From an archaeon (GTDB taxonomy: Archaea > Micrarchaeota > Micrarchaeia > Norongarragalinales > UBA97): a stretch of DNA of 61,366 nt. The stretch covers positions 1-61,366 of the forward strand of contig JAGVFW010000009.1 of NCBI GenBank assembly GCA_020057405.1, written 5' to 3'. How positions within the stretch are numbered: the stretch's first letter is position 1; every line of letters begins with the position of its first letter. The notes beneath the pieces were generated by a model, which did no database searches, was not told the origin of the DNA, and saw nothing but the letters and a program-made list of their open reading frames with translations. A program made the position numbers and the translations under genes. Positions 11,490 through 46,174 of the stretch are shown here, piece after piece.

Positions 11490-11879
11490 TCAAAGTATTA
11501 TTGCGTTTGCAAAAGCCTTGAAGTGCGGGTCACCGGTGACGACAATGGCATCGCTTGCTAGGGCGCTTGCGGCAATCACGCAGTCAATGAGGCCAATGTT
11601 TTGCTTGGAATGAAATTTTGCCCAGTACTCGCCGGCCTTGGCGGCGATTGACTCGTCGATTTCCACTTTCGTTGCCCTAGTAGATATTGCGGAGAGCACG
11701 TGATGAACATCGGCAGTCCGCCCTGCAGAAGTTAGTCTTGCAGATACTTCAGCAAGCGAGAGTGATGAAATTAGTATTGTCGCATCCGTCTCCGCTAAGA
11801 TGCGCTTTACAGCTGGCTTTTTCGGGCCGTTTGTAAAAAGCTCTAGCCAACAGAAAGTGTCAAGCAAGTAGCGCTTCAT
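11490..11879 (-). CDS. vapC: PIN-domain toxin
   Basis: YLLDT...LAEV...GLIDCVIAA...VTGDPHF. Confidence 0.9.
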   Translation of the reverse strand: MKRYLLDTFCWLELFTNGPKKPAVKRILAETDATILISSLSLAEVSARLTSAGRTADVHHVLSAISTRATKVEIDESIAAKAGEYWAKFHSKQNIGLIDCVIAASALASDAIVVTGDPHFKAFANAIIL

Positions 11880-12094
11880 CGGTTCTCATCCGCCCACAGC
11901 TCTTTTCTGGAAGGCCCATTCTTCAATTCTGGAAACTTTCCTTCAAGGTCTAGAAGGGAAGGCACGACAATCAGGCGCAAGTCCTTGCCCTCGGGCTCAA
12001 AGACCACCCGCTGGCCCTTCTTTATGCCCATCTTCTTTCTGACTCCTTCCGGAATCACAACCTGAAACTTAGACGAAACTACTGCAGACTCCAT
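11876..12094 (-). CDS. vapB: AbrB/MazE-family antitoxin
   Basis: VVSSKFQVVIPEGVRKKMGIKKGQRV; 4-nt overlap with vapC. Confidence 0.85.
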   Translation of the reverse strand: MESAVVSSKFQVVIPEGVRKKMGIKKGQRVVFEPEGKDLRLIVVPSLLDLEGKFPELKNGPSRKELWADENR

Positions 12095-12216
12095 CGAACC
12101 CTCACCGTAAGACGAATGGCTATCGATGTATTTAAGGGTTACTGGCACCGGAATCACTGAAGAAGTTTGCGCTTTCGAGTAGTTAAACAAAAGGAGAGTG
12201 GCTTGCCGGGCAAAAG

Positions 12217-18777: not shown

Positions 18778-21624
18778 ATGACCGAAAACGCGTTTGACTT
18801 GCTGCACCCGAAAATCGCGGCCCTAGCGAAAGCGCGCTTTGGCGAGCCAAGCGAAGTGCAGGCGGCAGCTATTCCGCTTGCAATGGCGGGCGAGAATGTC
18901 CTGGCAATCGCGCCTACTGGAAGTGGCAAGATGGAGGCGGCATTCCTTCCCGTCGTTAGTCGACTACTCGAGAGCACTGAGGCAGGGGACAAGGAAGGCA
19001 TCCGTTTTCTTTACATCACGCCCCTGCGTGCCCTCAACCGCGACATGCAACATAGAATGGAGTACTGGGCGCATTTGCTGGGGCTCTCGCTTGGCGTGCG
19101 CCACGGTGACACGAAACAAAGCGAGCGCGTCAAGCAAAAAATCAAGCCCCCCCAAATCATGGTCACCACTCCCGAGAGCTTAAGCACGATTTTGATTTCC
19201 CCAGGCATCCGCGACGCCCTGCGCAATGTCAAGTGGGTTGTTGTTGACGAGATACACGAGCTAATCGACAGCAAGCGCGGCGTGCAGCTATCGCTCGCCC
19301 TTGAGAGGCTGCGGGAGCGCGTGAAAGAAAAGGGCCCTGTGCAAAAAACACCGCGCGATTTCCAAATCATCGGGCTTAGCGCGACTGTGGGCGACGAGGC
19401 GAAGGCAGCTGAGTTTCTTTCCCCCAAGACTAAAGTCGCGCGGGCGGACCTCAAGCGCAAGATTGAGCTCAAAGTCGAGTTTCCCACGGTTGTCAAGGAC
19501 GCCGAGTTTGCGGCAAAGTGGCGCCTTGAGGGAGAGGCGGCTGCGCGAGTAGAGCGCTTGTCCCAGCTCATTGAGGAAAGCAAGAGCATTCTCGTTTTCG
19601 TAAACACGAGGAGCATGGCTGAAAGCCTGAGTGCATTGCTTTTCCAAGTCGAGATATTGCGGGGAAAGGTGGGCGTGCACCACGGTTCGCTCGCTCGCGA
19701 AAGCAGGATTGCGACCGAAGCGGAATTCAAGCGCGAGGGAACTGAAGGCGAGAAGAAACTAAAGGCGATTGTGTGCACGAGCAGCCTTGAGCTCGGCATC
19801 GATGTTGGCCGCATCGACATGGTGGTGCAGTACCACTCGCCCCGGCAGGTGACGCGCCTGCTGCAGAGAGTGGGGCGAAGCGGGCACAGAAAGAACCTCG
19901 TGCCAAAAGGAATTGTGCTTGCTGTCGCCGGCGGGGACTGCGTTGAAACTGCGGTACTGGCGCATCGCGCGCTTGGGGGAAAACTCGAGGCCATCAGGCT
20001 GCCAATAAACTGCCTTGACGTGCTTGGCGCCCAAGTGTCGGGATTTGTGCTTGACAAGTGCATCAATCCCGACGACAAGCTTGACACGAAAAGCGTCTAC
20101 GAGATTTTCAAGCGCTCGCCCTACTACCGCACGCTAGAGTTTTCCGAGTTCATCATGGTCTGCAAACAATTGTCGCAACAGCGGCTCCTCGCCTTAAGCG
20201 AGGACTTTGCAAGCCTGGCTCCAGCAAGGGCGACGAAGCTCTATTACTACGAAAACTTGAGCACCATCCGCGACCTGAGGCGATACTTTGTCAAGGACGC
20301 GGAAAAGCGGCGCAATGTCGCCGTCCTCGACGAGGAGTTTGTCGCCGAGTACCTGCAGAAGGGCGTGACGTTCATTTCGCGGGGCGTGCCTTGGAAAGTG
20401 CTAAGCATCACAGACGACGAAGTCATTGTGGAGCAGGCCCAAGACTTTACCGCAAGCATTCCGGATTGGGTGGGCGAGGAGATTCCCGTTGTCTTTGACG
20501 CGACGCAGGAATTCGCCGAGCTTCTTGAGAAGACGGGCAAGGGGCTTTTGGGAAAGTACGAACTTCTGCGCGACTACTCGTGCGCAGGAAGCGCTGCTGA
20601 CCAGATTCTTGCTTATGCGGAAAAGCAGCGCAAGTACTTTTTGCCCCAGAAAGGAAAATTCTTCCTCGAGGAGAGCGGCAAGACCCTGCTTCTGCACACT
20701 TTTGCGGGCAACGAGGCAAACGAGGCCCTCGCGCGGGCCATAGCGGCGATGCTGTCGGCAAGCCGCGGGGAAAGCACGAGGACGCGCGCGAGTGCCTACT
20801 CGATTGCATTCGAATTTTCCCACCCGCCCGACTCGAAGAAATTCCTCAAGATACTTGCTGAACTCGACGCGGACTCTGTTGAAAAAATCTTGCGCAACGC
20901 CATCCCCCACACTGCGATTTTCAGGAGCAGGTTCGTTGACGTGGCAAAGCGGTTCGGCATGATTCGGCGGGACGCTGACCTGAAGAGCATCAACATCAAG
21001 CGGTTGGTTGAGGCGAGCACTGAGACTCCAATTTGGCGCGAGGCTCTAAGCGAAGTGCTCACCGAGAAGATGGACATCCCGCGGCTGCGGCAAATCATCA
21101 AGTGGCCAGTCGAGCAAGTGATTCGCAGCGACTTGTCGCCATTGGCTTCCGAGTTCGTCGACCTGTATGCCAGCAGGGAACTCCTCGCAGCCGTCGAGCC
21201 TACCGCGCAGCTAATTGATGCGTTCAAGAAAAATTTGCTCGGCCAGCGGATGAAGCTCGTGTGCAACTACTGCCTCAACACTTTCAGCATTTACCTCAGG
21301 GAAGCGCCGGAAAAGATTTCCTGCCCTCACTGCCAAAGCACGCAGTCAACTCTCGCCGAGTACAGAAAAGTGCTGGAAAAGTCCGCGAAGGGAGAGAAAT
21401 TAGAGAAAGGCGAGGGCAAGCTTCTTGAGGACGCACGGCGAGTGGAGTCGCAAATCGGCGCGTACGGAGGAAAGGCGCTCATCGCGCTTGCAACTTACGG
21501 AGTCGGCCCCGACAGCGCAAGCCGCGTGCTCTCAAGGCTCCGCGACGACGAAGCGGAGTTCTACAGAGACCTCCTAGAGCAACAAAAGCAGTTCATCGCC
21601 AACCGCAAGTACTGGAAGGCCTAA
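18778..21624 (+). CDS. lhr: Lhr-like SF2 helicase
   Basis: APTGSGK, TPLRAL, DEIH, SAT, HHGSL, LELGIDVG, QRVGRSGH, C-terminal CxxC...CxxC. Confidence 0.92.
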   Translation: MTENAFDLLHPKIAALAKARFGEPSEVQAAAIPLAMAGENVLAIAPTGSGKMEAAFLPVVSRLLESTEAGDKEGIRFLYITPLRALNRDMQHRMEYWAHLLGLSLGVRHGDTKQSERVKQKIKPPQIMVTTPESLSTILISPGIRDALRNVKWVVVDEIHELIDSKRGVQLSLALERLRERVKEKGPVQKTPRDFQIIGLSATVGDEAKAAEFLSPKTKVARADLKRKIELKVEFPTVVKDAEFAAKWRLEGEAAARVERLSQLIEESKSILVFVNTRSMAESLSALLFQVEILRGKVGVHHGSLARESRIATEAEFKREGTEGEKKLKAIVCTSSLELGIDVGRIDMVVQYHSPRQVTRLLQRVGRSGHRKNLVPKGIVLAVAGGDCVETAVLAHRALGGKLEAIRLPINCLDVLGAQVSGFVLDKCINPDDKLDTKSVYEIFKRSPYYRTLEFSEFIMVCKQLSQQRLLALSEDFASLAPARATKLYYYENLSTIRDLRRYFVKDAEKRRNVAVLDEEFVAEYLQKGVTFISRGVPWKVLSITDDEVIVEQAQDFTASIPDWVGEEIPVVFDATQEFAELLEKTGKGLLGKYELLRDYSCAGSAADQILAYAEKQRKYFLPQKGKFFLEESGKTLLLHTFAGNEANEALARAIAAMLSASRGESTRTRASAYSIAFEFSHPPDSKKFLKILAELDADSVEKILRNAIPHTAIFRSRFVDVAKRFGMIRRDADLKSINIKRLVEASTETPIWREALSEVLTEKMDIPRLRQIIKWPVEQVIRSDLSPLASEFVDLYASRELLAAVEPTAQLIDAFKKNLLGQRMKLVCNYCLNTFSIYLREAPEKISCPHCQSTQSTLAEYRKVLEKSAKGEKLEKGEGKLLEDARRVESQIGAYGGKALIALATYGVGPDSASRVLSRLRDDEAEFYRDLLEQQKQFIANRKYWKA

Positions 21625-22333: not shown

Positions 22334-22876
22334 TCACGCTGCCTTGCCTAGTGGATAAACGCCCCTGCAAATGCGGCGGTGGTAAACGGTTAGGGGAATC
22401 TCGGTATTGAATGATATGCCCACTAGGGCGAGCTGCTTTTTGCGGGGCGTGGATGCTCCGACCGTGGTGCTAAAAGACTTGTAACCTAGGACTTTGAGCT
22501 TGTGGGCGGCGTGCTTCTCGGCAAAATAGCTCATCCCGATTATTGTCCCAGAATAGGGAGCCCGGTTCAAAATCTGGTAATCATCGGAAACTGCCTTAGA
22601 CCCCGCTCGTTCATAGGATACAAAGCCTAGGGCACGCTGGAAGCTGGACGGGTAGGACGCCTCCTGCAACGGCTTCAAAATGTGCTTTGGGATGCGCACG
22701 TGCTTTATCAAGGTAAGCGGCAACTCGCTGCTGCCTGACGCCTGGTTGTCGTCTGAAAACACGATGGTCGGGCTAGCCTTTCCGGAAGTCAGGTCAAACG
22801 CGAAAACCTCGTGGCCGCGCGTAGTGGTATGGTAAACCGCAAGATGCGTGATTGGCTTTGGTTCGGGCAACATCAT
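22334..22876 (-). CDS. hypothetical protein
   Basis: 180-aa ORF tightly coupled to both neighbours on the minus strand. Confidence 0.6.
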   Translation of the reverse strand: MMLPEPKPITHLAVYHTTTRGHEVFAFDLTSGKASPTIVFSDDNQASGSSELPLTLIKHVRIPKHILKPLQEASYPSSFQRALGFVSYERAGSKAVSDDYQILNRAPYSGTIIGMSYFAEKHAAHKLKVLGYKSFSTTVGASTPRKKQLALVGISFNTEIPLTVYHRRICRGVYPLGKAA

Positions 22877-23043
22877 TTCACACCAATCATGGCTTTGAGC
22901 CTATCGATAAAAGAGACTTGCCTTGAATCGGCTACGCGTCCTTCAGGCTCCCACTTTTCAATGAACTGAACATCTTTTTCACTCGGCGGTGCCCGCTCCT
23001 CTAGAGCCAATTCCTTTACCGACAGCACGCGGGGTTTTGCCAT
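22873..23043 (-). CDS. 56-aa protein translationally coupled to the E2 gene (not in ORF track)
   Basis: MAKPRVLSVKELALEERAPPSEKDVQFIEKWEPEGRVADSRQVSFIDRLKAMIGVK*; TAATG overlap with the E2 stop and ATGA overlap with the next gene. Confidence 0.65.
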   Translation of the reverse strand: MAKPRVLSVKELALEERAPPSEKDVQFIEKWEPEGRVADSRQVSFIDRLKAMIGVK

Positions 23044-23519
23044 TAGAGCACTATCCTCGGCTTGCCTGGCTTTGGCGCGAGTGCGCCTGGGGCGGCGAGG
23101 CCGTGTTCGACGAAATACTTTGCAGCTGATTTGTTAAGAGGGTCCGATGGGTTGGGGTGATCAAGCAGGTGGCGCAGTCCTTTGGCAAGCGAAACTAGAG
23201 TGAGGCCCTCGCTCCAGGCGTTGAGAATCTGGATGCACACTTTGCCGTCCTCGGCCCGGATGTTGGGGTGGAAAATTGGAGTCACCCACGTCACGTCGAT
23301 GCCACCCGCGTAAGGATAGTCGCGCAAAAGCTGCACGCGAACCTTGTGTGAATCGATTGTCTTTACCGTCCCGCCGTCAAGAAAGTAGCCTCGGCCGGAA
23401 AACTCGAGCACGTAGTCGGTGCGGTCGGCACTCGCAGTAAACTTGATGCCTGTGCGCGACAGCTCGGCAAACTCGTTGTCGATGCGGCGTTTCCAAATCG
23501 CTTGCGGAAGGCGGGGCAT
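23043..23519 (-). CDS. ubiquitin-conjugating enzyme E2 (UBC fold)
   Basis: KRRIDNEF, DYPY, TPIFHPNI...GKVCIQILNAWS, LLDHPNPSDPLNKSAA. Confidence 0.93.
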   Translation of the reverse strand: MPRLPQAIWKRRIDNEFAELSRTGIKFTASADRTDYVLEFSGRGYFLDGGTVKTIDSHKVRVQLLRDYPYAGGIDVTWVTPIFHPNIRAEDGKVCIQILNAWSEGLTLVSLAKGLRHLLDHPNPSDPLNKSAAKYFVEHGLAAPGALAPKPGKPRIVL

Positions 23520-23572
23520 AGAAGAAAACCAGTATCGCAAGCAATTTATTGCCTGCGGCTGTTCGTTTTTGC

Positions 23573-23806
23573 ATGGACTTGCCTGAAGGCCTAGGATGGT
23601 ACGGCATTGCCGCCGTTTTTGCGGCCTACGCGGGCAACAGCCTCGCTTATTTCAACGCACAAAACCCACTCTACCCTGCGCTCAACTTCACGGGCGCCCT
23701 TGCGCTTATCGTCGACACGCGAGCGAAAAAAGACTGGCCCCTGTTCGCACTAAACCTTGTTTGGGCTGCGATTGCGGCTTACTCGCTTGCGAGAATCTAC
23801 TTTTAG
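23573..23806 (+). CDS. CBU_0592-like 3-TM membrane protein
   Basis: LGWYG...AY...LYPALNFTGA...KKDWP..ALNLVWAAIA. Confidence 0.7.
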   Translation: MDLPEGLGWYGIAAVFAAYAGNSLAYFNAQNPLYPALNFTGALALIVDTRAKKDWPLFALNLVWAAIAAYSLARIYF

Positions 23807-24045
23807 CCGCCGGTAGGATCGGGCATCAGAATTAGCTTGGCGCCCTCGGCCACTCCGGCTTCCTTTAGCGAGAGGTCGGGGTTGAGGATCTTGTTGTCGG
23901 CAGTTGCAAGCACGAAGCGGTCCTTGAGTTGGAGGTTCTCGGCCAGCACTTCAAGCACGCTGCCGACCGTGAACTGTGGCTCGACCGCCATAGTGATTTC
24001 CTTGCCGCTAGTTGAATGAGTCACCGTAACGTTGTATTCGACCAT
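23803..24045 (-). CDS. ubiquitin-like protein with free C-terminal GG
   Basis: 80 aa; SGKEITMAVEPQFTV, NKILNPDLSLKEAGVAEGAKLIL, ends PDPTGG*. Confidence 0.88.
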   Translation of the reverse strand: MVEYNVTVTHSTSGKEITMAVEPQFTVGSVLEVLAENLQLKDRFVLATADNKILNPDLSLKEAGVAEGAKLILMPDPTGG

Positions 24046-24099
24046 CGCCGTTAGCCCCTCTGAAAGCTATTTATTACGCCCGATTAATAACCTTGCTGC

Positions 24100-24864
24100 A
24101 TGGACAAGCCAAAAATCGTTGCAATCCACCGGCCCGAGGACGAAAGCGAAGTCCCGCCAGAGCGCGAACCGCAGCAAGAGCCATCGGCAGAGCAACAGAA
24201 AACTCCGACAAATGTTGAAACGCAGCCGGTTGAAACTCCCCAAACCGGCGGGGCAAACCCCGAAGCTGCGGTTCAAACGGCACCACAAGCTGAAGCAAAG
24301 CCCGAGCGGCCGGAAAAGCAGGCTGTGGGCCCCGACGGGCTCACCGACCTCGAACGCAGCGTGCTTGACGAGATGAGAAAACGCGGGGAAATAAGCCTCA
24401 ACGAAGAACGCGCAATAGCGCAGGAGGCAAGGGCCAGAAACGACGCGCTTAGCCAACCCACGGCGCCACCCGCACCGAAAACCGAAAGGCCAGTGGGCGC
24501 AATCGAAGCTCCCGCGGAAAAGCCGGCTGGCGAAATGGAAGTCGCTTCAGAAGAACAGCATCCCCGCGTGATTGCGGGGGCCCCGCCTTGGGTGAGCAGG
24601 CAGGCAAAGCCCATCATCAAGCAGACGCGAGTAAACGGCGTCGTCGTAAGCGAGCGGGGAGAAAGCGCAGGCAAGCAAACCGAAGACCACTTGGCCCAAC
24701 CCCAGGCGAGCGGGGACCACACGCAAGACGAACGCGAGCGCGCAGCCGACTTGGCGCGAAAGATTTACGCGCGCAAACAACGCGAAAAGAGTTTCTTTTA
24801 CCGCCTACAGAAAATGCTTGGCCTTGTGAAGGAAGAACCGCTGGTGACCCAACGGAATGATTGA
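24100..24864 (+). CDS. Pro/Glu/Gln-rich, largely disordered hypothetical protein
   Basis: Low-complexity 254 aa; divergent from the Ubl gene; overlaps the JAB start. Confidence 0.7.
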   Translation: MDKPKIVAIHRPEDESEVPPEREPQQEPSAEQQKTPTNVETQPVETPQTGGANPEAAVQTAPQAEAKPERPEKQAVGPDGLTDLERSVLDEMRKRGEISLNEERAIAQEARARNDALSQPTAPPAPKTERPVGAIEAPAEKPAGEMEVASEEQHPRVIAGAPPWVSRQAKPIIKQTRVNGVVVSERGESAGKQTEDHLAQPQASGDHTQDERERAADLARKIYARKQREKSFFYRLQKMLGLVKEEPLVTQRND

Positions 24865-25315
24865 AGCTTATTTCGAGGAGCCCGTGATGCGGGCGGCCCA
24901 AGAGCACTGCAAAAAAGCTGCGGGCTTGCGCCTTGAGGCAATGGGCCTGCTTTCGGGCACTGCAGCCAAATGGCAGGGCACCACTTACGTCGTAATTGAC
25001 GAGTACATCACCGCAGAGAACGACGCGACTGCAGTGAGCGTACGGTTCGGCAGGGAAGCGTTCGGCGCCCTTGCGGCAAGAATAAACGAGGCTGCAGGCC
25101 GGGGCAAGCTCGTCGTGGGCTGGGCGCACGCGCACCCAAACTACGGGTGCTTCCTCTCGTCGACAGACGTGCGAACGCAGCGCCAGTACTTTGCCGAGGA
25201 ATTCAACATCGCCCTCGTAATCGACCCCGTGCGCGGGGAAAAGCGAGTCTTCAAGCTTTCGCAAGATGCAAAAGGATACCGGCCCGCCGGCTATGCCGTT
25301 GTTGCCAGAAAGTGA
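24857..25315 (+). CDS. JAB/MPN+ (Rpn11-like) metallo-isopeptidase
   Basis: EAMGLL...GWAHAHPNYGCFLSSTD (E...HxH x7 S x2 D), LVIDP. Confidence 0.93.
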   Translation: MIEAYFEEPVMRAAQEHCKKAAGLRLEAMGLLSGTAAKWQGTTYVVIDEYITAENDATAVSVRFGREAFGALAARINEAAGRGKLVVGWAHAHPNYGCFLSSTDVRTQRQYFAEEFNIALVIDPVRGEKRVFKLSQDAKGYRPAGYAVVARK

Positions 25316-26111
25316 GCCGACCGCGCCGGCAATACAGCAAGCGCAACCCACAAAAGGAGAAAAGAAATTGAAATCGCCAAAGCCCCGAAAGGCACGAAAA
25401 ACACGCCTGAAGCTCACGCGCTTTGACAAGGACGCAATCGAACTAATGCGCAAGGGCACCCGAAGCGCAGGGAGGCTCGCTGCACTCATGGGCCTTGACT
25501 CGACGCAAGTGCGAGGCAGGCTCCTCGAGCTAGAGTCCCACGGCATCATCGCGTTTGACGCAAGCGAACCCGACAAAGTCAGCCTCACGGTCAAGGCATA
25601 CAATGACCTCAAGCTCTCGCCAATAGAGGAAAAAAAGCAGGAACCGGCACCAAACGTTCCAGTAAGACACCCCCCCGCTATTGAAGCGCCGCAAGCCCCG
25701 ACCCAAAAGCCTCCCGCTCAAACTTCCGGCATCAGCGAACGCATCGACTTGGCCGAGCTATTGCGCCGGGGCGCGCCAAAAGACCCGCTTTTTGTCCGAA
25801 GGAAAGTCGGCGGAGACGAAGTGATTGAGGAGAAGAAAATCGACGCGCAAACCACTGAGCTTTTGAAGAAAACCATTGCCGAATACGAGGGCGAAAAATG
25901 CGAACTATGCCGAGGCGAGTTCCGCCTCGCGCTTGCAGACGGCCACCCGAAATACGGGCATTGCTTCTGCGGCGCCGCCTACCACCAGGACTGTTACGAC
26001 AGCCTCTTGGACGACAAGGGCAGCTGCGCGCGCTGCGGCAGGACAATGGAAATCATTTTAGACAGGCAAAGCGAAGAAGCAGTCAGGGCGATTAGAAAGT
26101 TGTTTGAGTAG
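25293..26111 (+). CDS. winged-helix plus C-terminal RING-like zinc finger, candidate E3 ligase
   Basis: SAGRLAALMGLDSTQVRGRLLELESHGII (wHTH); CELC...CFCGAAYHQDC...CARC (C4HC3 spacing). Confidence 0.72.
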   Translation: MPLLPESEPTAPAIQQAQPTKGEKKLKSPKPRKARKTRLKLTRFDKDAIELMRKGTRSAGRLAALMGLDSTQVRGRLLELESHGIIAFDASEPDKVSLTVKAYNDLKLSPIEEKKQEPAPNVPVRHPPAIEAPQAPTQKPPAQTSGISERIDLAELLRRGAPKDPLFVRRKVGGDEVIEEKKIDAQTTELLKKTIAEYEGEKCELCRGEFRLALADGHPKYGHCFCGAAYHQDCYDSLLDDKGSCARCGRTMEIILDRQSEEAVRAIRKLFE

Positions 26112-26113
26112 AG

Positions 26114-26440
26114 GTGGATAAAATGAGGAATATACTTAGACCGAAAACGCTGAGGGCAGCGGAACAGGCATTCAAGCGCCTTCACGGGACGGTTTACTAC
26201 GGGTCCAGCGGACTGTCTTACGAAGTAACCGAGGGTCCGCAAGAACTGGAAAACGGGGAAGGGCATTACATCCACCTAGCGCCCAACAAACACCCCGCAA
26301 GTAGCGCGGAACACTCATCCTACGAAATTATCCTTAACTCGGAAATCCAGCGCCTTGCGAAAAATATGAAAGTTGGCCTCGGAATAATCACCCATCCATC
26401 TGAAAAACGCGATCTGCGAATAGCCTTCCTTAAAGACTAG
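26114..26440 (+). CDS. hypothetical protein
   Basis: 108-aa ORF 2 nt after the RING-gene stop. Confidence 0.55.
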   Translation: MDKMRNILRPKTLRAAEQAFKRLHGTVYYGSSGLSYEVTEGPQELENGEGHYIHLAPNKHPASSAEHSSYEIILNSEIQRLAKNMKVGLGIITHPSEKRDLRIAFLKD

Positions 26441-26442
26441 CC

Positions 26443-26769
26443 GTGAACCGAATGCCTTGGAAACTGTGGGGAAATAAACCGGCCGAAACGCCCAAGCTTA
26501 AGCCCCTCCAACAGAGTGCAAGGGAAGCCAAGCTTTCGGCTTTCCGCAGCCTAAGGGAAAGCAACGTGCTTGTTGAAGACCATCTTTCAACAGACAACGA
26601 GCATTGCCTCAAAGTGACCCTTAAAACGCACGACGACGACCTTACCCGGGAGCTTGCCAACACTATTGCAGACAAGCACGCAAGCGAAAAGCAGGTAAAT
26701 AACAACTCGAGCGTGATTGGTACCGAAATGATCCTCGCGTTTAAAGCAACTGCCAGAAAAGCGCGCTAG
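26443..26769 (+). CDS. hypothetical protein
   Basis: 108-aa ORF 2 nt after the previous stop; shares a CTAG stop with the E1 gene. Confidence 0.55.
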   Translation: MNRMPWKLWGNKPAETPKLKPLQQSAREAKLSAFRSLRESNVLVEDHLSTDNEHCLKVTLKTHDDDLTRELANTIADKHASEKQVNNNSSVIGTEMILAFKATARKAR

Positions 26770-27620
26770 CCGTGCACCGGACAGCTCTCCCGCTTTGCAA
26801 TCTCAAAAACAGCGCTCTCGTTAGTCAGGCCATTGTAGAACCAGTACTTGCCAGCTAGGCCGGACTCCGGCAGGTCGAACTTGCGGGGCTTGTTTTCGCG
26901 CGCTACGCGCTTTTGCGTCAAGTGGTTGACCACGCCACCGACAGGCGGCTCCTCGCTTTTCGCGTGCGCCATTTTGACAAACTCGCTTGCCATCACGCCA
27001 GCGACTATGCTCGTCGTGGTCGGAAGCGCGGGCATTTTGGGGTCGACGAACTCAAGCATCTCGCCGGTGCAGCTGTACTTTCGCCACAAAAACGAATAGT
27101 CGCGGGGGCTAAGGCCGCACTCAAGGCAACTGCCGCCGTCGACAACCTGCACTTTGCCGTTAAAACCCGCCGTGCCGCCGTCGACGAGCGGAGTTTTTCC
27201 ATAGCAATGCGCATTCGCGTGCAGCCGCGCGCCAAGGTTGTCAAGGCAGCTAAAGGCGTAATCGAATTTTGAAAAGAAATCCTCGTCGAGAGTCTCGACG
27301 CGCTCGAGGACGGGTTCGATTTGCGCAGACGGGTTAAGCCGGCCGGCGGATGCTGCAAGAGCCTCGGCCTTCTTCGCGCCCTTTTGCGCGTCCTCGTGAG
27401 TGAAGAACACGCAGCGGTTGAGGTTTGCGGTGACGACCGTGTCAAAGTCGACTATCGAAATTTTTCGCACGCCAAGCTGCAGCAAGAGCTTCGCCGCCTC
27501 GTTGCCAAGGGCGCCCGCACCTATTAGCACGCAATGCGACTGCTCGACTGCAGTCTGCTGCCAGCCGCGGATGCGCCGCTGCCTGTCCCATTGGTCCGCG
27601 TCGATGAGGTCCATTGCCAT
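26766..27620 (-). CDS. ThiF/UBA-family ubiquitin-like activating enzyme (E1)
   Basis: WDRQ, IGAGALGNE, DFDTV..ANLNR, LDNLGAR, CLEC, candidate catalytic Cys in KYSCT, C-terminal CPVH. Confidence 0.9.
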   Translation of the reverse strand: MAMDLIDADQWDRQRRIRGWQQTAVEQSHCVLIGAGALGNEAAKLLLQLGVRKISIVDFDTVVTANLNRCVFFTHEDAQKGAKKAEALAASAGRLNPSAQIEPVLERVETLDEDFFSKFDYAFSCLDNLGARLHANAHCYGKTPLVDGGTAGFNGKVQVVDGGSCLECGLSPRDYSFLWRKYSCTGEMLEFVDPKMPALPTTTSIVAGVMASEFVKMAHAKSEEPPVGGVVNHLTQKRVARENKPRKFDLPESGLAGKYWFYNGLTNESAVFEIAKRESCPVHG

Positions 27621-27656
27621 CAAGAGTTTTAACCGCGGCCGTGCTTTAATGCATTT

Positions 27657-28484
27657 ATGCCAGGAGCAATAATCGCATACACCACCGAAGACCCTGCCGG
27701 AAGCAACGTCGCCAGGCGATTGCACGAGCTCTACGGCTTTAAGCCCTCGGAAATGATTCTCGAGGCGGGAACCGAATTGCGCGCTTGGGAGTACCATAGC
27801 GTCAAGCTTGTTGAATTGCACACTCGGCTGTCTAACGCAAGCGAGTACCTCTCGCAAGTCCCGTCATTTGCTGCTGGCCTGGTTATCTTCGCCTCAAGAC
27901 ACAAGGCCGAGAGCGGCAGGCCCTCGTTTACAGTCCACTCTACGGGCAATTGGGGTGACGACCCGCAATGGGGCGGCAACCCGCACGAGCTTGGCAAGAC
28001 AAGCGCCAAGGCGATTGCCTCTGCCTACCGCTGGTTCAAGGACAATCCTCACGATGGATTCGAACTCTCGCTTGAGGCGACCCACCACGGTCCCACGTCA
28101 CTGCATTCGCCAAGCGTGTTTGTAGAGCTTGGCAGTTCGGAAAAAGAATGGAAGAAGACCGACGCAGGCGGGCACCTGGCAAGCTGCGTGATGGCAGTTG
28201 CGCAGAATTGGTCGTCAGAACAAGGCCGGACCGCCCTCGGCATGGGCGGCACGCACTACGCAAGCAAGTTCAACCCGCTTGAGGGAAAAGAGTTCAACTT
28301 CTCATTCATTTGCCCCAAGCACGCCCTCGATAATTTCTCAACGCAGATGCTCAAGCAGGCGATTGCCAAAACTGCTGAGAAAGTCGAGTGCATAGTGCTT
28401 GACTGGAAGGGAACGACGCTGCCCCAAAGGGACGCCGTGCGCGCGGCTGCGCAAGAGTGCGGACTCGAAGTCGTGCGCGAGTAA
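27657..28484 (+). CDS. dtdA: D-aminoacyl-tRNA deacylase (archaeal Dtd2/GEK1 type)
   Basis: FASRH, TVHSTGNW, EATHHGP, FVELGS, GGTHY. Confidence 0.92.
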   Translation: MPGAIIAYTTEDPAGSNVARRLHELYGFKPSEMILEAGTELRAWEYHSVKLVELHTRLSNASEYLSQVPSFAAGLVIFASRHKAESGRPSFTVHSTGNWGDDPQWGGNPHELGKTSAKAIASAYRWFKDNPHDGFELSLEATHHGPTSLHSPSVFVELGSSEKEWKKTDAGGHLASCVMAVAQNWSSEQGRTALGMGGTHYASKFNPLEGKEFNFSFICPKHALDNFSTQMLKQAIAKTAEKVECIVLDWKGTTLPQRDAVRAAAQECGLEVVRE

Positions 28485-28529
28485 AACAAGTATGAGGCGT
28501 TAAAAGCTTCGCGGGTGCAACTAATTCCT

Positions 28530-29093
28530 ATGGCTTGGCTACAGATAATCGCGGCTTGCGTTGCAGTGTTTTTCCTCCAGATGGCGCTGCCTGGGCTCAC
28601 CAATTCCTTCGCGTTCGTTCCCGCAAACGCATTCTCGCACCCCTGGACTTTCGTCACCTCGCTCTTTTTGCACGGCGGCATCACGCACCTTTTCTTCAAC
28701 ATGTGGGCGCTCTTCATGTTCGGCCCCCTACTCGAACGGCGCATTGGCGAGAGGAAATTCTACGCGCTTTATTTCATTAGCGGCATCGTCGGCAACCTTG
28801 CATTCGTGTTCTTCTACCCTGCGCACGTGCTTGGTCTTGGGGCTTCGGGAGCGATTTTCGGAGTCATCGGCGCGCTTGCGGTCCTGATGCCCAGCCTGCC
28901 GCTCTTGTTCTTCTTCATACCGACGCAGCTGTGGGTTGCGGCGATATTTTGGGTAGCCATTGATTTGTTCTTGACCGGCTCTGCCGACGACGTGGCGCAC
29001 TACGTGCACCTAGCTGGAATCGCCGTCGGAGTGGGATGGGGAATGCTGCTTAAGAAGCAAGAGCCGCCCGAATACTATTTCGGGCAAGGGTAA
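28530..29093 (+). CDS. rhomboid intramembrane serine protease
   Basis: PWTFVTSLFLHG..HLFFNM, GASGA (Ser), AHYVHLAG (His). Confidence 0.93.
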   Translation: MAWLQIIAACVAVFFLQMALPGLTNSFAFVPANAFSHPWTFVTSLFLHGGITHLFFNMWALFMFGPLLERRIGERKFYALYFISGIVGNLAFVFFYPAHVLGLGASGAIFGVIGALAVLMPSLPLLFFFIPTQLWVAAIFWVAIDLFLTGSADDVAHYVHLAGIAVGVGWGMLLKKQEPPEYYFGQG

Positions 29094-29113
29094 GACTAAA
29101 CGGGAGTGGTAAA

Positions 29114-29368
29114 ATGATTTTGAAGAAAGTAAAGTGCATCGGCATCGGGCCGGCCATGACGCCAGAAGGAAAGCGAAAGACGCAAATCACTTTCGGCAGG
29201 GACCTCGACCCCATGAAGCACAGCACGCCCCAAGGCGTGCCAATCCACTACGACAACGAAATCATCGTATTTCTAGACGAGGACGCGTTTAAGACAGTCA
29301 AACGCAAGTTCATCGTTGGCGAGGAATTCAACTTCACCGTCAGCGACAAGGGAATTGAAATCAAGTAA
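29114..29368 (+). CDS. small OB-fold-like hypothetical protein, possibly arcadin-1-like
   Basis: PEG...IVFLDEDAF...IVGEEFNFTV..KGIEIK; resemblance recalled from memory only. Confidence 0.45.
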   Translation: MILKKVKCIGIGPAMTPEGKRKTQITFGRDLDPMKHSTPQGVPIHYDNEIIVFLDEDAFKTVKRKFIVGEEFNFTVSDKGIEIK

Positions 29369-30634
29369 CTAGAGCCACGCGCTCATGCGCTTCTGCGCAA
29401 GCACTTGGCTTCTCTTCACATACTCGCTTACAGGATGGCGCAGGCGGCTCGAGAGAATCTGCAGCGCCTCCTGAAGTGAGCCGCACTTGACAGGCGTTGA
29501 CCGCATTGCCTGACGCACATTCTCACGCACTTGCCACACGCCCATCGGCACTACGTAACCCTCGCTCACTTCTCGGAAAACGACCGCGCGCGCCTGCTTG
29601 CGCATTGAATGCAATCCTTCAATTACGCCAAGCCTTGACGCGTAGTAGCCGCCGCCCTCTAGTTCCGCATACCGCGTGCGCCCCTCGAAGGGTTCGTGCT
29701 CCTCGATGATGTCGGGCGCAGCTTCGGCCCACGGCGTCGACGGGGCCCAGCTCTCGAAGTTTTCAAACTCCCACTTGCCGGGCATCAGGAGGACTTCAAA
29801 GTGGTTGTGCAGAAAATCGCTCGAGTAAATTCGGTACTGGCCGAGCTCGTCAAAATTCCTTATCGACTCGAGCAAGTGCTTGCCGATGATGTCGTCGGCA
29901 CCCGTGATGCTCCACTTCGTCGGCACAAGGCGCCGCTCTTTTCCAAGCACGCCGGCACTCAAGAGTTTCTGGACGTAATAGTAGTCGAGGCCGTGCTGCA
30001 GCATTTCGGGAACAGCCTCACGCACGAGCAGCTTGTCCTCGATTAAGTCGTCCACAATTGACGGAATGCGAGGGTTGTCGGCTAAATCAAACTTGCGCAG
30101 CTGCCCGCTTGGGCCGCTTGGCTGCGATTGGGGCGAGAACATCATCGAGAACGCGGGCTTTGTCTCAAAACCGACTTCGACATCAACGGGCTTAAATGAA
30201 ATCACCGCGTCCTGCACATCAGAAAGATAACGCGAACTACCCTTTACCGAATGCGCGCGCCTCCCCGTGACGAGGGACGAGCGCATGCGAATTATTTCTC
30301 CGTAATCTAGGCTCGTCCATTTTGATGGCGAGTCGATGAAATCCGCATTCGCAGTCTCGTCAACGCTGATGAGCGGCCCGACTGAAACGTTTGGATAACC
30401 GTACTCGCCGACGAAAACACCAGGCGGCGACGGGCCGAACATCTCTTGGGAAAGCTTGGATTCAACAACAGGCGCGGCAAGCAATTTAGCAAGCACGGGC
30501 GAAGTCTGTTCGAGGTTAGAGAAAAGCTGATTCTTGTACTTGATTGCGGCACGGCCGTTGATGCGCACTATCTCCAGGTCCTTGAATACGGAACGCTTTG
30601 GAAGGGGAAAGCGGGCGATTGCGCGGCCAGCCAT
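29369..30634 (-). CDS. nreA: Nre-family DNA repair protein
   Basis: SPPGVFVGEYGYPNV, RRLVPTKWSIT, GGYYASRL, GVWQVRENVR, C-terminal PIP-like QKRMSAWL. Confidence 0.92.
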   Translation of the reverse strand: MAGRAIARFPLPKRSVFKDLEIVRINGRAAIKYKNQLFSNLEQTSPVLAKLLAAPVVESKLSQEMFGPSPPGVFVGEYGYPNVSVGPLISVDETANADFIDSPSKWTSLDYGEIIRMRSSLVTGRRAHSVKGSSRYLSDVQDAVISFKPVDVEVGFETKPAFSMMFSPQSQPSGPSGQLRKFDLADNPRIPSIVDDLIEDKLLVREAVPEMLQHGLDYYYVQKLLSAGVLGKERRLVPTKWSITGADDIIGKHLLESIRNFDELGQYRIYSSDFLHNHFEVLLMPGKWEFENFESWAPSTPWAEAAPDIIEEHEPFEGRTRYAELEGGGYYASRLGVIEGLHSMRKQARAVVFREVSEGYVVPMGVWQVRENVRQAMRSTPVKCGSLQEALQILSSRLRHPVSEYVKRSQVLAQKRMSAWL

Positions 30635-44424: not shown

Positions 44425-45959
44425 GTAAGGCATTGTTCTTGATTACGGAACTGCACAAGCCAGTCGGTGGCCTCTACCGGTTCACTACCGAGCTATTGCC
44501 CGCCTGGCGTGCCGCTTTTGCAAGAGGAGAATGCACCTACGAACCGCTTGTGCTTAGCGTGCGCGACCCGCGCGCACCGTTAGGCGACCTTCGCGAGAGC
44601 AAGAAGATGAAGGCAGTTGCTGACGGGGCCGGAGTGGAAATCTTTGAGGCGGTCCGCGGCGGCGAGACTTGCTACTTCATCGACAAGACAATGGACGGCC
44701 CTGAGCGAAACGACTTCCACAAACTATTGTGGGACAAGTACCGCATTCAGAGCGAGAAAGCAAGCGGCTGGGCGGACTACGCCGTTCTCAACACGTTTTG
44801 GAAGTACGCGCCTATCGTTGCGACCGCGCTTGTAAAGGAGGGCGAGAAGATTAGCGTGATTGACGCGCAGGATTGGCTTGCGTTCCCCGCCGGCTTCCTT
44901 TGCGCCGAGGCGCTTGGAAAGGCGCTTAACTGTAGGTTCCACAGCGGCGAGTTCGGCCGCTCGCTTGGGAATCCCGACCTGTCTTCGGCACCCGTGCAAA
45001 TCGAGAGAGCGGCGCTCCAGGAAGCGGATTTCGTCCAGGGAGTCAGCGTTGGTGAGGCGAAGTTCGAGCTCTACCACCTCTTGCCGCTCAAAAACGAGTT
45101 GTACAACCAACTCAAGGACTCTCGGTCCGCGGCGTGGCGGGAGGAGCAGGAATGGAAGACCGGGCTTTACGAGGAGTTCTTGTTGCTTGAGTCAGAGGGC
45201 TTAGAGCTTCTTGGCAGAAACGCCGGCGGCTTGCCCAACGGCATCATCATCGACGGTTGGGACACGGTGACAAAGGCGGATGTGAAAAAAGGCCGAAAGG
45301 CGCTCGAGCGGCTTTTGCCCGGAAAGAAAAAGTACGTGCTCTTCATCGGCCGCGCGGAGTACCGAAAAGGCATCGACCACTTGCTTGAGGCATTCGCCTT
45401 GCTTGGCGATAAAGACACGGGACTCATCATCAGCTCGGTCCTTAGCGAGCCGGAACTAAACAGGTTGCTTCTAAAGGCGTCAAACCTCGGCATTGCTGAA
45501 CGGGTGCGCGTGTCTAACGGCTGGTTGGACGAGGAAATGAAGAAGCCCATGTTCTGCGCTGCCGAAGTGATTGCGCTGCCGTCGCTTTACGAGCCGTTCG
45601 GCATCGTCACCCTCGAGGGCCTCGCGGCCGACTTGGCTTGCGAGAAAAACGGGCTTCGCGGTCCGGCAGTCATCGTTGGCGACACGGGGGGCATGCGCGA
45701 GGTCATCAAAAACGGCGTCAACGGCTTTAAAGTGCCGCTAGAGGAAGGCCGGTTTGACATGAACCCGGCGTTCATGGCCAAGATTCTCTCAATTGTGCTA
45801 ACAAACGAAGAGATTGCGCGCAACATTTCAAAGGGCGGCGGACAGCGCGTGATGAACCCGGACTTCAACTGGGAGCATGTTGCAACGCGGGTCTCCGAAA
45901 TCTACAAGCGCGCCATCGCCAACCACGCAAAATGGGAAGCGGCACTGAGGGTGAAATGA
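44421..45959 (+). CDS. GT4 glycosyltransferase
   Basis: VGGL, QDW, FIGRAEYRKG, PSLYEPFGIVTLEG. Confidence 0.85.
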   Translation: MSKALFLITELHKPVGGLYRFTTELLPAWRAAFARGECTYEPLVLSVRDPRAPLGDLRESKKMKAVADGAGVEIFEAVRGGETCYFIDKTMDGPERNDFHKLLWDKYRIQSEKASGWADYAVLNTFWKYAPIVATALVKEGEKISVIDAQDWLAFPAGFLCAEALGKALNCRFHSGEFGRSLGNPDLSSAPVQIERAALQEADFVQGVSVGEAKFELYHLLPLKNELYNQLKDSRSAAWREEQEWKTGLYEEFLLLESEGLELLGRNAGGLPNGIIIDGWDTVTKADVKKGRKALERLLPGKKKYVLFIGRAEYRKGIDHLLEAFALLGDKDTGLIISSVLSEPELNRLLLKASNLGIAERVRVSNGWLDEEMKKPMFCAAEVIALPSLYEPFGIVTLEGLAADLACEKNGLRGPAVIVGDTGGMREVIKNGVNGFKVPLEEGRFDMNPAFMAKILSIVLTNEEIARNISKGGGQRVMNPDFNWEHVATRVSEIYKRAIANHAKWEAALRVK

Positions 45960-46174
45960 TGGAAAGCACTTCCGGGGACTATTTTGGCAAGAAAGCCGGC
46001 GCAGTGTGGAAGGCGCTAAAGGAAAACGGGCCGATGGGAATCGCAGGCCTCAAGAAAAAGACCGGGCTTGCCGAGCGCGACGCTTACGCCGGCCTCGGGT
46101 GGCTTGGCCGCGAAGGGAAAATCCGCATAATCGGCGATAGGCCGATGAACTACAAGTTCTCGCTGATAGAATGA
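45956..46174 (+). CDS. DUF2582-type winged-helix protein
   Basis: FGKKAGAVWKAL...GLGWLGREGKI. Confidence 0.8.
   Translation: MMESTSGDYFGKKAGAVWKALKENGPMGIAGLKKKTGLAERDAYAGLGWLGREGKIRIIGDRPMNYKFSLIE

Follow-up and report, generated by a model that had tools for sequence, protein, structure and literature searches.

The closest described system to the one considered here is that of Candidatus Caldiarchaeum subterraneum, in which the small RING finger protein (srfp) is the E3 ligase of an operon that also encodes ubiquitin, E1 (activating enzyme), E2 (conjugating enzyme) and Rpn11, and which has been reconstituted in vitro (Hennell James et al., PMC5654768). Archaeal E3-like RING proteins accompany both the Caldiarchaeum and the Asgard systems, those of Caldiarchaeum being small (Fuchs et al. 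2018, PMC6043591); both papers are drawn on here for the parts that concern these proteins. We find a protein of another build in an archaeon of the phylum Micrarchaeota, order Norongarragalinales. The stretch analysed, called the window throughout, comprises positions 1 to 61,366 of contig JAGVFW010000009.1 (assembly GCA_020057405.1). It encodes a protein in which a basic tail and a winged helix-turn-helix (wHTH) domain are joined by a Pro-rich linker to a C-terminal Cys/His finger, a layout first proposed from the DNA letters (hereafter the sequence-only reading) and borne out by translation and by the structural model. Like srfp, this wHTH-RING protein is encoded together with a ubiquitin-like protein (Ubl), an E1-like enzyme, an E2 of the UQ_con family and a JAB/Rpn11-like protease. 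On balance, we read it as the E3-like part of a eukaryote-type Ubl conjugation system made up of E1, E2, Ubl and JAB, with its N-terminal module serving in targeting. As such it is probably the E3 of the cascade and selects proteins for tagging, by a ligase activity that we infer. The Ubl system itself is a fixed feature of one Micrarchaeota order.

The finger is central to this argument. Its putative zinc ligands follow the pattern C203-x2-C206-x17-C224-x-C226-x4-H231-x2-C234-x10-C245-x2-C248, and in an alignment of 81 family members, on which all family conservation counts given here are based, seven of the eight (C203, C206, C226, H231, C234, C245, C248) never vary, while 80 members retain C224. 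Judged from this alignment, the pattern is not a product of chance. H223 is kept in only 75 of the members and is therefore probably not a ligand. The spacing is that of an eight-ligand cross-brace, with the ligands in the order C4HC3 and not C3HC4 or C3H2C3. When a profile of 40 finger sequences was compared with the sequences of the PDB, nine matches were obtained at E<=10 and eight of the nine were RING proteins, AMFR/gp78 (E=0.025), RCHY1 (0.08), CWC24, RNF24 and RNF165 being among the matches. In the AMFR alignment C226, H231, C234, C245 and C248 take the places of ligands 3, 5, 6, 7 and 8, and the canonical position of ligand 4 is occupied by Ala; therefore C224 and C226 would act as ligands 3 and 4, with their register shifted. 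Mapped through the same alignment, the positions expected to contact an E2 (after Cys1, after ligand 6, and between Cys7 and Cys8) hold L205 in 80/81 members, L, I, V or M at position 238 in 77/81, and V, A, I or L at position 246 in 77/81.

Structural models, built with AlphaFold2, point the same way. In the full-length model the blocks of the finger reach a predicted local distance difference test score (pLDDT) of 72-90, falling to 67 after the last ligand and returning to about 80 in the final helix. All Foldseek matches of the finger model that are listed within the first 50 ranks bear the title of a RING/U-box E3 or of a complex that includes one; examples are TRIM32, Not4 (probability 0.96), RNF8, EL5, RNF24, gp78, Arkadia and RNF165 (TM score 0.67, root mean square deviation (rmsd) 3.2 over 53 residues). 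VIA, which is independent of Foldseek and was run against 48,161 chains, gives RING/U-box E3 titles to 41 of the 50 matches listed. Its top Z for the finger is 5.5, and RNF12 is found at Z 4.9 with an rmsd of 2.2 over 54 residues. One PHD protein stands among those 50, PHF7, which is itself an E3, and Nse1 is also listed. At the level of predicted models the finger thus resembles RING domains almost exclusively, rather than PHD fingers. The sequence-only reading had named a PHD or other non-cross-brace fold, in a finger that neither binds nor activates the E2, as the outcome that would speak against an E3; in the models obtained, RING matches predominate. A feature search of a protein atlas placed archaeal zf-RING_2 clusters, from Nitrososphaerota and Promethearchaeota, first (0.87-0.89), which we take as a lead only.

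Several observations on the finger weigh against an E3. By sequence and by fold alike, the matches of the finger all fall short of significance. Its best Pfam match, Prok-RING_1 (PF14446), scores 14.3 bits against a cut-off of 29.1, and zf-RING_2 (PF13639) scores 12.8-14.7 bits against 27.3. The Foldseek E-values lie between 0.036 and 0.33, none at or below 0.001, and no VIA Z exceeds 5.5, a range in which the tool warns that values can reflect a common arrangement. Modelled alone, the finger is only moderately confident, with a best pLDDT of 70.3 and the other four models at 46-61. Low absolute fold scores are to be expected since the domain has only about 55 residues, and it is the uniformity of the matches that counts. 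Many active RINGs, though not all, carry an Arg or Lys "linchpin" directly after the last zinc ligand; here that residue is Gly (G249) in 78/81 members, in place of an Arg/Lys linchpin, and an R or K follows one position further on in 78/81. Given that the finger fails the Pfam cut-offs for both zf-RING_2 and Prok-RING_1, we place the protein with those that work as RING E3s do, short of proven membership in either family.

C4HC3 is also the ligand class of PHD and RING-CH fingers, so that a non-catalytic finger of the PHD, C1 or Nse1 type has to be weighed, one that reads a modification or binds the Ubl without activating the E2, in a cascade that has no E3. The Gly at the canonical linchpin position would fit such a finger, as would the presence of the PHD E3 PHF7 and of Nse1 in the VIA list. 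Single members of the family match RH_dom (11/81), C1_1 (5/81) and PHD_2 (3/81; E>=0.064). Per-member Pfam matches are nevertheless commonest to RING families: zf-RING_2 is matched by 21/81 members at E<=0.1 (best 9.8e-4) and Prok-RING_1 by 11/81 at the same limit (best E 9.3e-5). Together with the RING/U-box majority among the VIA matches listed, against a single PHD protein, and with the aliphatic residues conserved at the E2-contact positions, these matches make a non-catalytic finger improbable in our judgment.

The setting of the gene supports a role as E3. In the genome that carries the window (1.22 Mb; completeness 90.6%) the wHTH-RING open reading frame (ORF) is the best match to both Prok-RING_1 and zf-RING_2, below the cut-off in either case, and the only other match to these families is a weaker one to zf-RING_2 on another contig (C7; E 0.12, 13.7 bits), likewise below the cut-off. 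Should the cascade include an E3, the wHTH-RING protein is the candidate. When prokaryotic species were scanned, each through a single genome, 39 loci encoding a relative came to light; their titles read Micrarchaeota, Micrarchaeia or Norongarragalinales except for one "uncultured archaeon" record. Neighbours were counted in these loci by tblastn with the window proteins, misses falling mostly at contig ends. The JAB gene lies directly upstream of the wHTH-RING gene in 38/39 loci, and the Ubl, E1 and E2 are present in 36, 35 and 33 of the 39, respectively. The place of the wHTH-RING gene in the conserved E2/Ubl/JAB/X/E1 cluster is fixed. Wherever both genes are present (38 loci), the longest wHTH-RING ORF begins at most 54 nt past the JAB stop, and in 25 of these loci it overlaps or abuts the JAB gene; eight of the 25 show the 4-nt overlap that is typical of translational coupling. 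Tight coupling to JAB is a trait of the family, despite the ambiguity of the start codon in the window described below. In the E2, HPN, the catalytic Cys95, P69 and Y70 are invariant in 33/33 sequences, and most Ubl genes end exactly at PDPTGG.

A few relatives (loci L003, L011, L016 and L020) encode a Ubl with an extension after the GG; such extensions would need processing, presumably by the adjoining JAB protease. Between the Ubl and JAB genes most loci hold a further gene of very variable length, whose product ends in most loci in a similar amphipathic C-terminal tail (...ASRD-LP...FFxKLKxxLGF). The low-complexity ORF that fills this slot in the window may be a further component of the Ubl system.

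The family is confined to one clade. A word-indexed search of 5.8 billion proteins returned 55 homologues, and HMMER, run exhaustively over 1.84 billion cluster representatives, returned 75 at E<=1e-3, 69 of them at E<=1e-10. The longest ORFs of the relatives span 229-414 aa, and all homologues that bear a name are entered as "hypothetical" or "uncharacterised" proteins from Candidatus Micrarchaeota or Norongarragalinales. We sampled 301 genomes of the phylum, 35 from the window's own order and 266 from elsewhere. The finger profile is matched in 34/35 genomes of the order, with one copy each, and in 0/266 of the others; the E2 profile is matched in 35/35 and 0/266. The sole genome of the order with an E2 and no finger is 84% complete and has its E2 on a small contig. 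Because these genomes are kin, the co-occurrence amounts in effect to one gain of the whole system; the homologues all come from one clade, the counts reflect essentially one evolutionary event, and this tempers the case for an E3. Among proteins of 50-181 aa the finger profile finds 14 matches, all of them pieces of wHTH-RING family members on short contigs, in a search that sees shared words only and says nothing on the relatedness of distant small RINGs. Pairwise distances of the RING protein, E2, JAB and E1 across 31 taxa correlate weakly (Spearman 0.13-0.34), and as these distances are near saturation we conclude nothing from co-divergence. The earlier proposal that the gene encodes an E3 candidate is well supported, on four sides: its slot in the cluster, its co-occurrence with the E2, its being the only RING-like match of note in the genome, and the RING-like fold of its model.

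We also considered an anti-phage Ubl/E1/E2/JAB system of the kind found in defence islands, and rejected it. PADLOC gives no match for the wHTH-RING protein, the E2 or the Ubl, its matches being limited to generic ones to the E1 domain and weak ones to JAB, and the cluster is single-copy and keeps a fixed synteny among housekeeping genes across the order. NCBIfam likewise holds no match for the wHTH-RING protein.

The model is surest in the wHTH domain (pLDDT 95-98), which comprises three helices, then a beta hairpin and a fourth, short helix. Its sequence signature is HTH_AsnC/HTH_24-like, and its profile finds the Lrp/AsnC regulator PH0140 among the PDB sequences (E=2.6e-4). Foldseek returns MarR, DtxR and Z-alpha domains (probability 1.0, E about 0.02), and VIA returns 7wze_A (Z 10.0, rmsd 1.8 over 70 aa) along with other MarR-type regulators. 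The winged helix belongs to a class that consists mostly of DNA binders. The tail before it has a median charge of +7, and in 58/81 homologues at least six K/R fall within the 25 aa that precede the wHTH. AT_hook is matched in Pfam by 3/81 members, and an AT-hook-like RGR(P/K) core occurs in 11/81 members and in 5/39 genome loci; the window protein has a basic tail that lacks the RGRP core.

Other properties of the domain tell against a DNA-directed module. Over the wHTH core the net charge has a median of 0, the wing loop is acidic or else gapped or deleted, and the recognition helix (helix 3) conserves only R76 (R in 73/81 rows, basic in 93% of filled cells) and L80. Given this neutral core, acidic wing and poorly conserved helix, a canonical MarR-like contact with DNA is not supported. 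What the domain conserves besides these two residues lies in the first helix and the turn that follows it (F44, D45, G55), and in a G-Y-N turn after the wing. These same features lend weight to a different role for an E3 of this build, in which the winged helix is a protein-docking module for the E2 backside, the Ubl, JAB or the substrate, and the tail provides general electrostatic affinity. The conserved surface residues cluster instead at K40, R43, F44, D45 and K46 and at K101, G102, Y103 and N104. In cullins and APC2, winged-helix B (WHB) domains act alongside RING partners, the APC2 WHB binding an E2, and Cullin_Nedd8, the cullin WHB family, is matched by 2/81 members (best E 4.9e-4); Cullin-4B appears weakly in the PDB profile search with the wHTH (E 0.31). 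In sequence and in fold the domain nonetheless matches the Lrp/AsnC and MarR DNA-binding regulators best, and the adjoining tail, strongly basic in most homologues and AT-hook-like in some, points to nucleic acid. Protein docking by the winged helix is a serious rival, one we would call possible though somewhat unlikely. For the N-terminal module as a whole, nucleic-acid affinity is likely, with the tail probably contributing more to it than the winged helix does; sequence-specific recognition is unlikely. The sequence-only reading held that the wHTH could direct conjugation to DNA-bound substrates; such targeting is plausible, and we keep it as an inference.

The likeness to Lrp/AsnC and MarR proteins also raises the possibility that the protein chiefly regulates transcription, be it of the cluster or of genes elsewhere, its zinc finger serving in dimerisation or sensing and not as a ligase. 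Such wHTH domains are mostly regulators in archaea, and the operon adjoins a divergent promoter region (24046-24099) with TATA-like elements. No inverted repeat was found in this region and its flanks, however, except for one palindrome of 9 nt that lies within a gene, and the recognition helix is unconserved although the cluster to be regulated is conserved. Since, moreover, the finger resembles the RING domains of E3s and the cluster is otherwise without an E3, we consider a regulator very improbable.

Between the wHTH and the finger, an otherwise variable and disordered linker contains one short conserved motif, IDLAELLRRGAP. Within this motif D152 is kept in 70/81 members, L153 in 69/81, E155 in 56/81 (with D in 13 more) and P162 in 69/81; L156 and L157 are also conserved, and a helix is predicted at residues 153-158. 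By its conservation, DLxELLx(K/R)GAP is a candidate binding site. A further variable stretch separates the motif from the finger, and the length of the Pro-rich linker varies within the family. The C-terminal helix behind the finger is conserved as well (D257 in 65/81, A263 in 60/81, F271 in 77/81).

Taking the wHTH-RING protein as an E3-like enzyme, the cascade could run as follows. The E1 would activate the GG-ended Ubl and hand it to the E2. The C4HC3 finger would fold as a cross-brace RING and dock the Ubl-charged E2, with L205, L/I238 and V/A/I246 of the finger contacting the invariant P69-Y70 loop of the E2. The basic tail and the Lrp/MarR-type winged helix would anchor the enzyme on its targets, most likely DNA, RNA or nucleic-acid-bound proteins, and the flexible linker of roughly 90 residues would set the reach of the RING-E2~Ubl assembly to lysines near the anchor point. 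The DLxELLxKGAP motif would probably serve as one more place for the E2, the Ubl or a substrate to dock. JAB, encoded just upstream and probably co-translated, would trim Ubl precursors or remove the tag. A more specific proposal goes further. In it, a RING tethered to DNA by a basic, AT-hook-like tail and the wHTH tags DNA-bound replication or repair proteins of a DPANN archaeon, as a functional analogue of Rad18, Bre1 or Nse1 with an origin outside Asgard and TACK; the protein would then be the first multi-domain, substrate-targeting archaeal Ubl E3, and DLxELLxKGAP a new E2/Ubl docking element. We offer this fuller proposal tentatively and regard it, taken as a whole, as rather doubtful.

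The features of the locus are collected in Table 1. The start codon of the wHTH-RING gene is ambiguous. In addition to the ATG used here there are alternative starts at ATG 25266 and at TTG 25368; the latter, which has a GGAG 8 nt upstream, is the start of the public gene call (P0002, 247 aa). The sequence-only reading had the gene overlap the JAB gene. This holds for ATG 25293, which gives an overlap of 23 nt, and for ATG 25266, and fails for TTG 25368, which would leave a gap of 52 nt after the JAB gene. In the public annotation the wHTH-RING protein is "hypothetical", and the E2 is already named "ubiquitin-conjugating enzyme E2". No sequencing run, and no RNA data set, was found listed as holding the cluster.

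Table 1. Positions of the wHTH-RING gene, its parts and the adjoining Ubl genes in the window
Feature	Position	Strand	Basis or remark
E2 (UQ_con)	23043..23540 (probable start 23519)	-	PF00179 E=3.8e-17
Ubiquitin-like protein, ends in GG	23803..24045	-	weak sub-cut-off Pfam ubiquitin/YukD matches
Low-complexity ORF upstream of JAB, 254 aa	24100..24864	+	no Pfam match
JAB/MPN metalloprotease gene, directly upstream of wHTH-RING	24857..25315	+	PF01398 E=6.7e-9
wHTH-RING ORF	25293..26111	+	272 aa from ATG 25293; direct translation
Basic N-terminal tail, K/R-rich (residues 21-41)	25353..25415	+	11 K/R within the first 42 aa
Winged helix-turn-helix, Lrp/AsnC-MarR type (residues 42-106)	25416..25610	+	model, fold and profile matches
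Pro-rich linker, low-confidence (residues 107-150)	25611..25742	+	10 P in 44 aa; pLDDT about 50-60
Linker motif (I)DLxELLx(K/R)GAP (residues 151-162)	25743..25778	+	conservation; short predicted helix
C4HC3 binuclear RING-like zinc finger (residues 203-248)	25899..26036	+	ligand conservation, fold and profile matches
Conserved C-terminal helix (residues 257-271), last residue F271	26061..26105	+	model helix 258-271; conservation
E1-like ThiF-family adenylating enzyme	26766..27857	-	PF00899 E=1.3e-44

The cluster's flanks (18778-21624 and 27657-30634 in the window) are syntenic within the order. D-aminoacyl-tRNA deacylase (DtdA) is found downstream of the E1 in 25/39 loci and Nre in 18/39, and the Lhr helicase upstream of the E2 in 15/39. 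As this synteny is confined to one order, that of Nre and Lhr may be inherited gene order. The sequence-only reading had pointed to a histone gene, Nre and many repair genes nearby as suggestive only. The window does encode Nre (29369-30634), Lhr, UvrA, UvrB and UvrC, as well as a HerA-type helicase (DUF87) followed downstream by Rad50; the link to a histone gene is not supported, in that no histone-fold match is found there, small ORFs included, and the genome's matches to PF00808 lie only on contigs C15 (over the cut-off) and C2 (weak).

Some further observations concern the remaining ORFs of the window. The E2 gene is followed directly downstream by an ORF of 56 aa (22873-23043, minus strand), which has no Pfam match and by tblastn lies beside the E2 in 17/39 loci. 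Two 108-aa ORFs occupy the interval between the RING and E1 genes (26114-26769, plus strand); neither has a Pfam or NCBIfam match, nor a tblastn match in the 39 loci, and because the RING and E1 genes abut in many relatives the pair looks like a lineage-specific insertion. A gene pair for a PIN-domain protein and a MazE-like antitoxin (11490-12190, minus strand) is inserted between uvrC and uvrA. A stand-alone small winged-helix protein (DUF2582, E=3.4e-15) is encoded at 45932-46174 on the plus strand, among glycosyltransferase and GH57 genes.

In a literature search we found no ubiquitin system or RING protein described in Micrarchaeota or Norongarragalinales, and no such multi-domain E3 ligase described in archaea. 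The main texts of papers centred on Norongarragalinales do not mention ubiquitin, the proteasome or JAMM, nor, in the case of PMC12892359, RING. What emerges is a complete set of E1, E2, RING and deubiquitinating protease, fixed in one order of Micrarchaeota with reduced genomes, in which the RING is joined to a candidate targeting module. If the protein is active, RING-dependent Ubl tagging is wider in archaea than reported so far, and the eukaryotic design of a RING combined with a module for substrate or location is present in a prokaryote whose genome spans about 1.2 Mb. The cascade consists of five small genes and could therefore be rebuilt in vitro, as a minimal system for target choice by an E3; such a rebuilt cascade would also make testable what Ubl tagging does in a symbiont-type cell.

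How does the wHTH-RING protein compare with known systems? Burroughs, Iyer and Aravind reportedly described, in 2011, prokaryotic RING fingers of the Prok-RING_1 type in Ubl/E1/E2/JAB neighbourhoods. Like them, the window protein has a RING-like finger of the binuclear kind and is encoded in a prokaryotic neighbourhood for Ubl conjugation; its Prok-RING_1 score lies below the Pfam cut-off. With the Lrp/AsnC and MarR regulators it shares the wHTH fold; it differs from them in lacking their ligand-binding/dimerisation domain, in its acidic wing and in the RING-like finger fused to it. Among eukaryotic proteins, Nse1 combines winged helices with a C4HC3 RING-like finger and Rad18 a RING with a SAP domain, and both, like Bre1, are directed to chromosomes. 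All three are weak neighbours of the finger in VIA (Nse1 7dg2_A, Z 4.7; Rad18 2y43_B, Z 4.4; Bre1 8guj_L, Z 5.0). The likeness to them is one of design, a RING-type finger joined to a module that places it on the chromosome, to which Nse1 adds the winged helices and the C4HC3 order; there is no detectable sequence relationship, and domain order and linker differ. The zf-RING-like family PF08746, that of the Nse1 finger, is matched by only 2/81 members (E>=0.072).

The comparison with srfp goes furthest in detail, and is made by its published description, in the parts of the paper that deal with the finger and the E2 (PMC5654768). The Caldiarchaeum E3 is described there as a small stand-alone RING, as the sequence-only reading had stated. 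The two proteins have the logic of the operon in common and probably also the fold. In srfp, C3 and H4 fall out of alignment and an extra Cys is present; the register of ligands 3 and 4 is thus shifted in both proteins, the link between the two shifts being our own. Both carry a hydrophobic residue after the first Cys of the finger's first Cys pair (I30 in srfp, L205 in the window protein), and a PY loop is found in both E2s, the PY pair of the Caldiarchaeum E2 being needed for ligation. At the linchpin, a role is ascribed to R69 of srfp. The differences lie in build and in lineage: srfp is a small single-domain RING-H2 (C3H2C3), whereas the window protein has a C4HC3 finger together with a tail, a wHTH and a long linker, and its lineage is DPANN (Micrarchaeota), not Aigarchaeota or Asgard.

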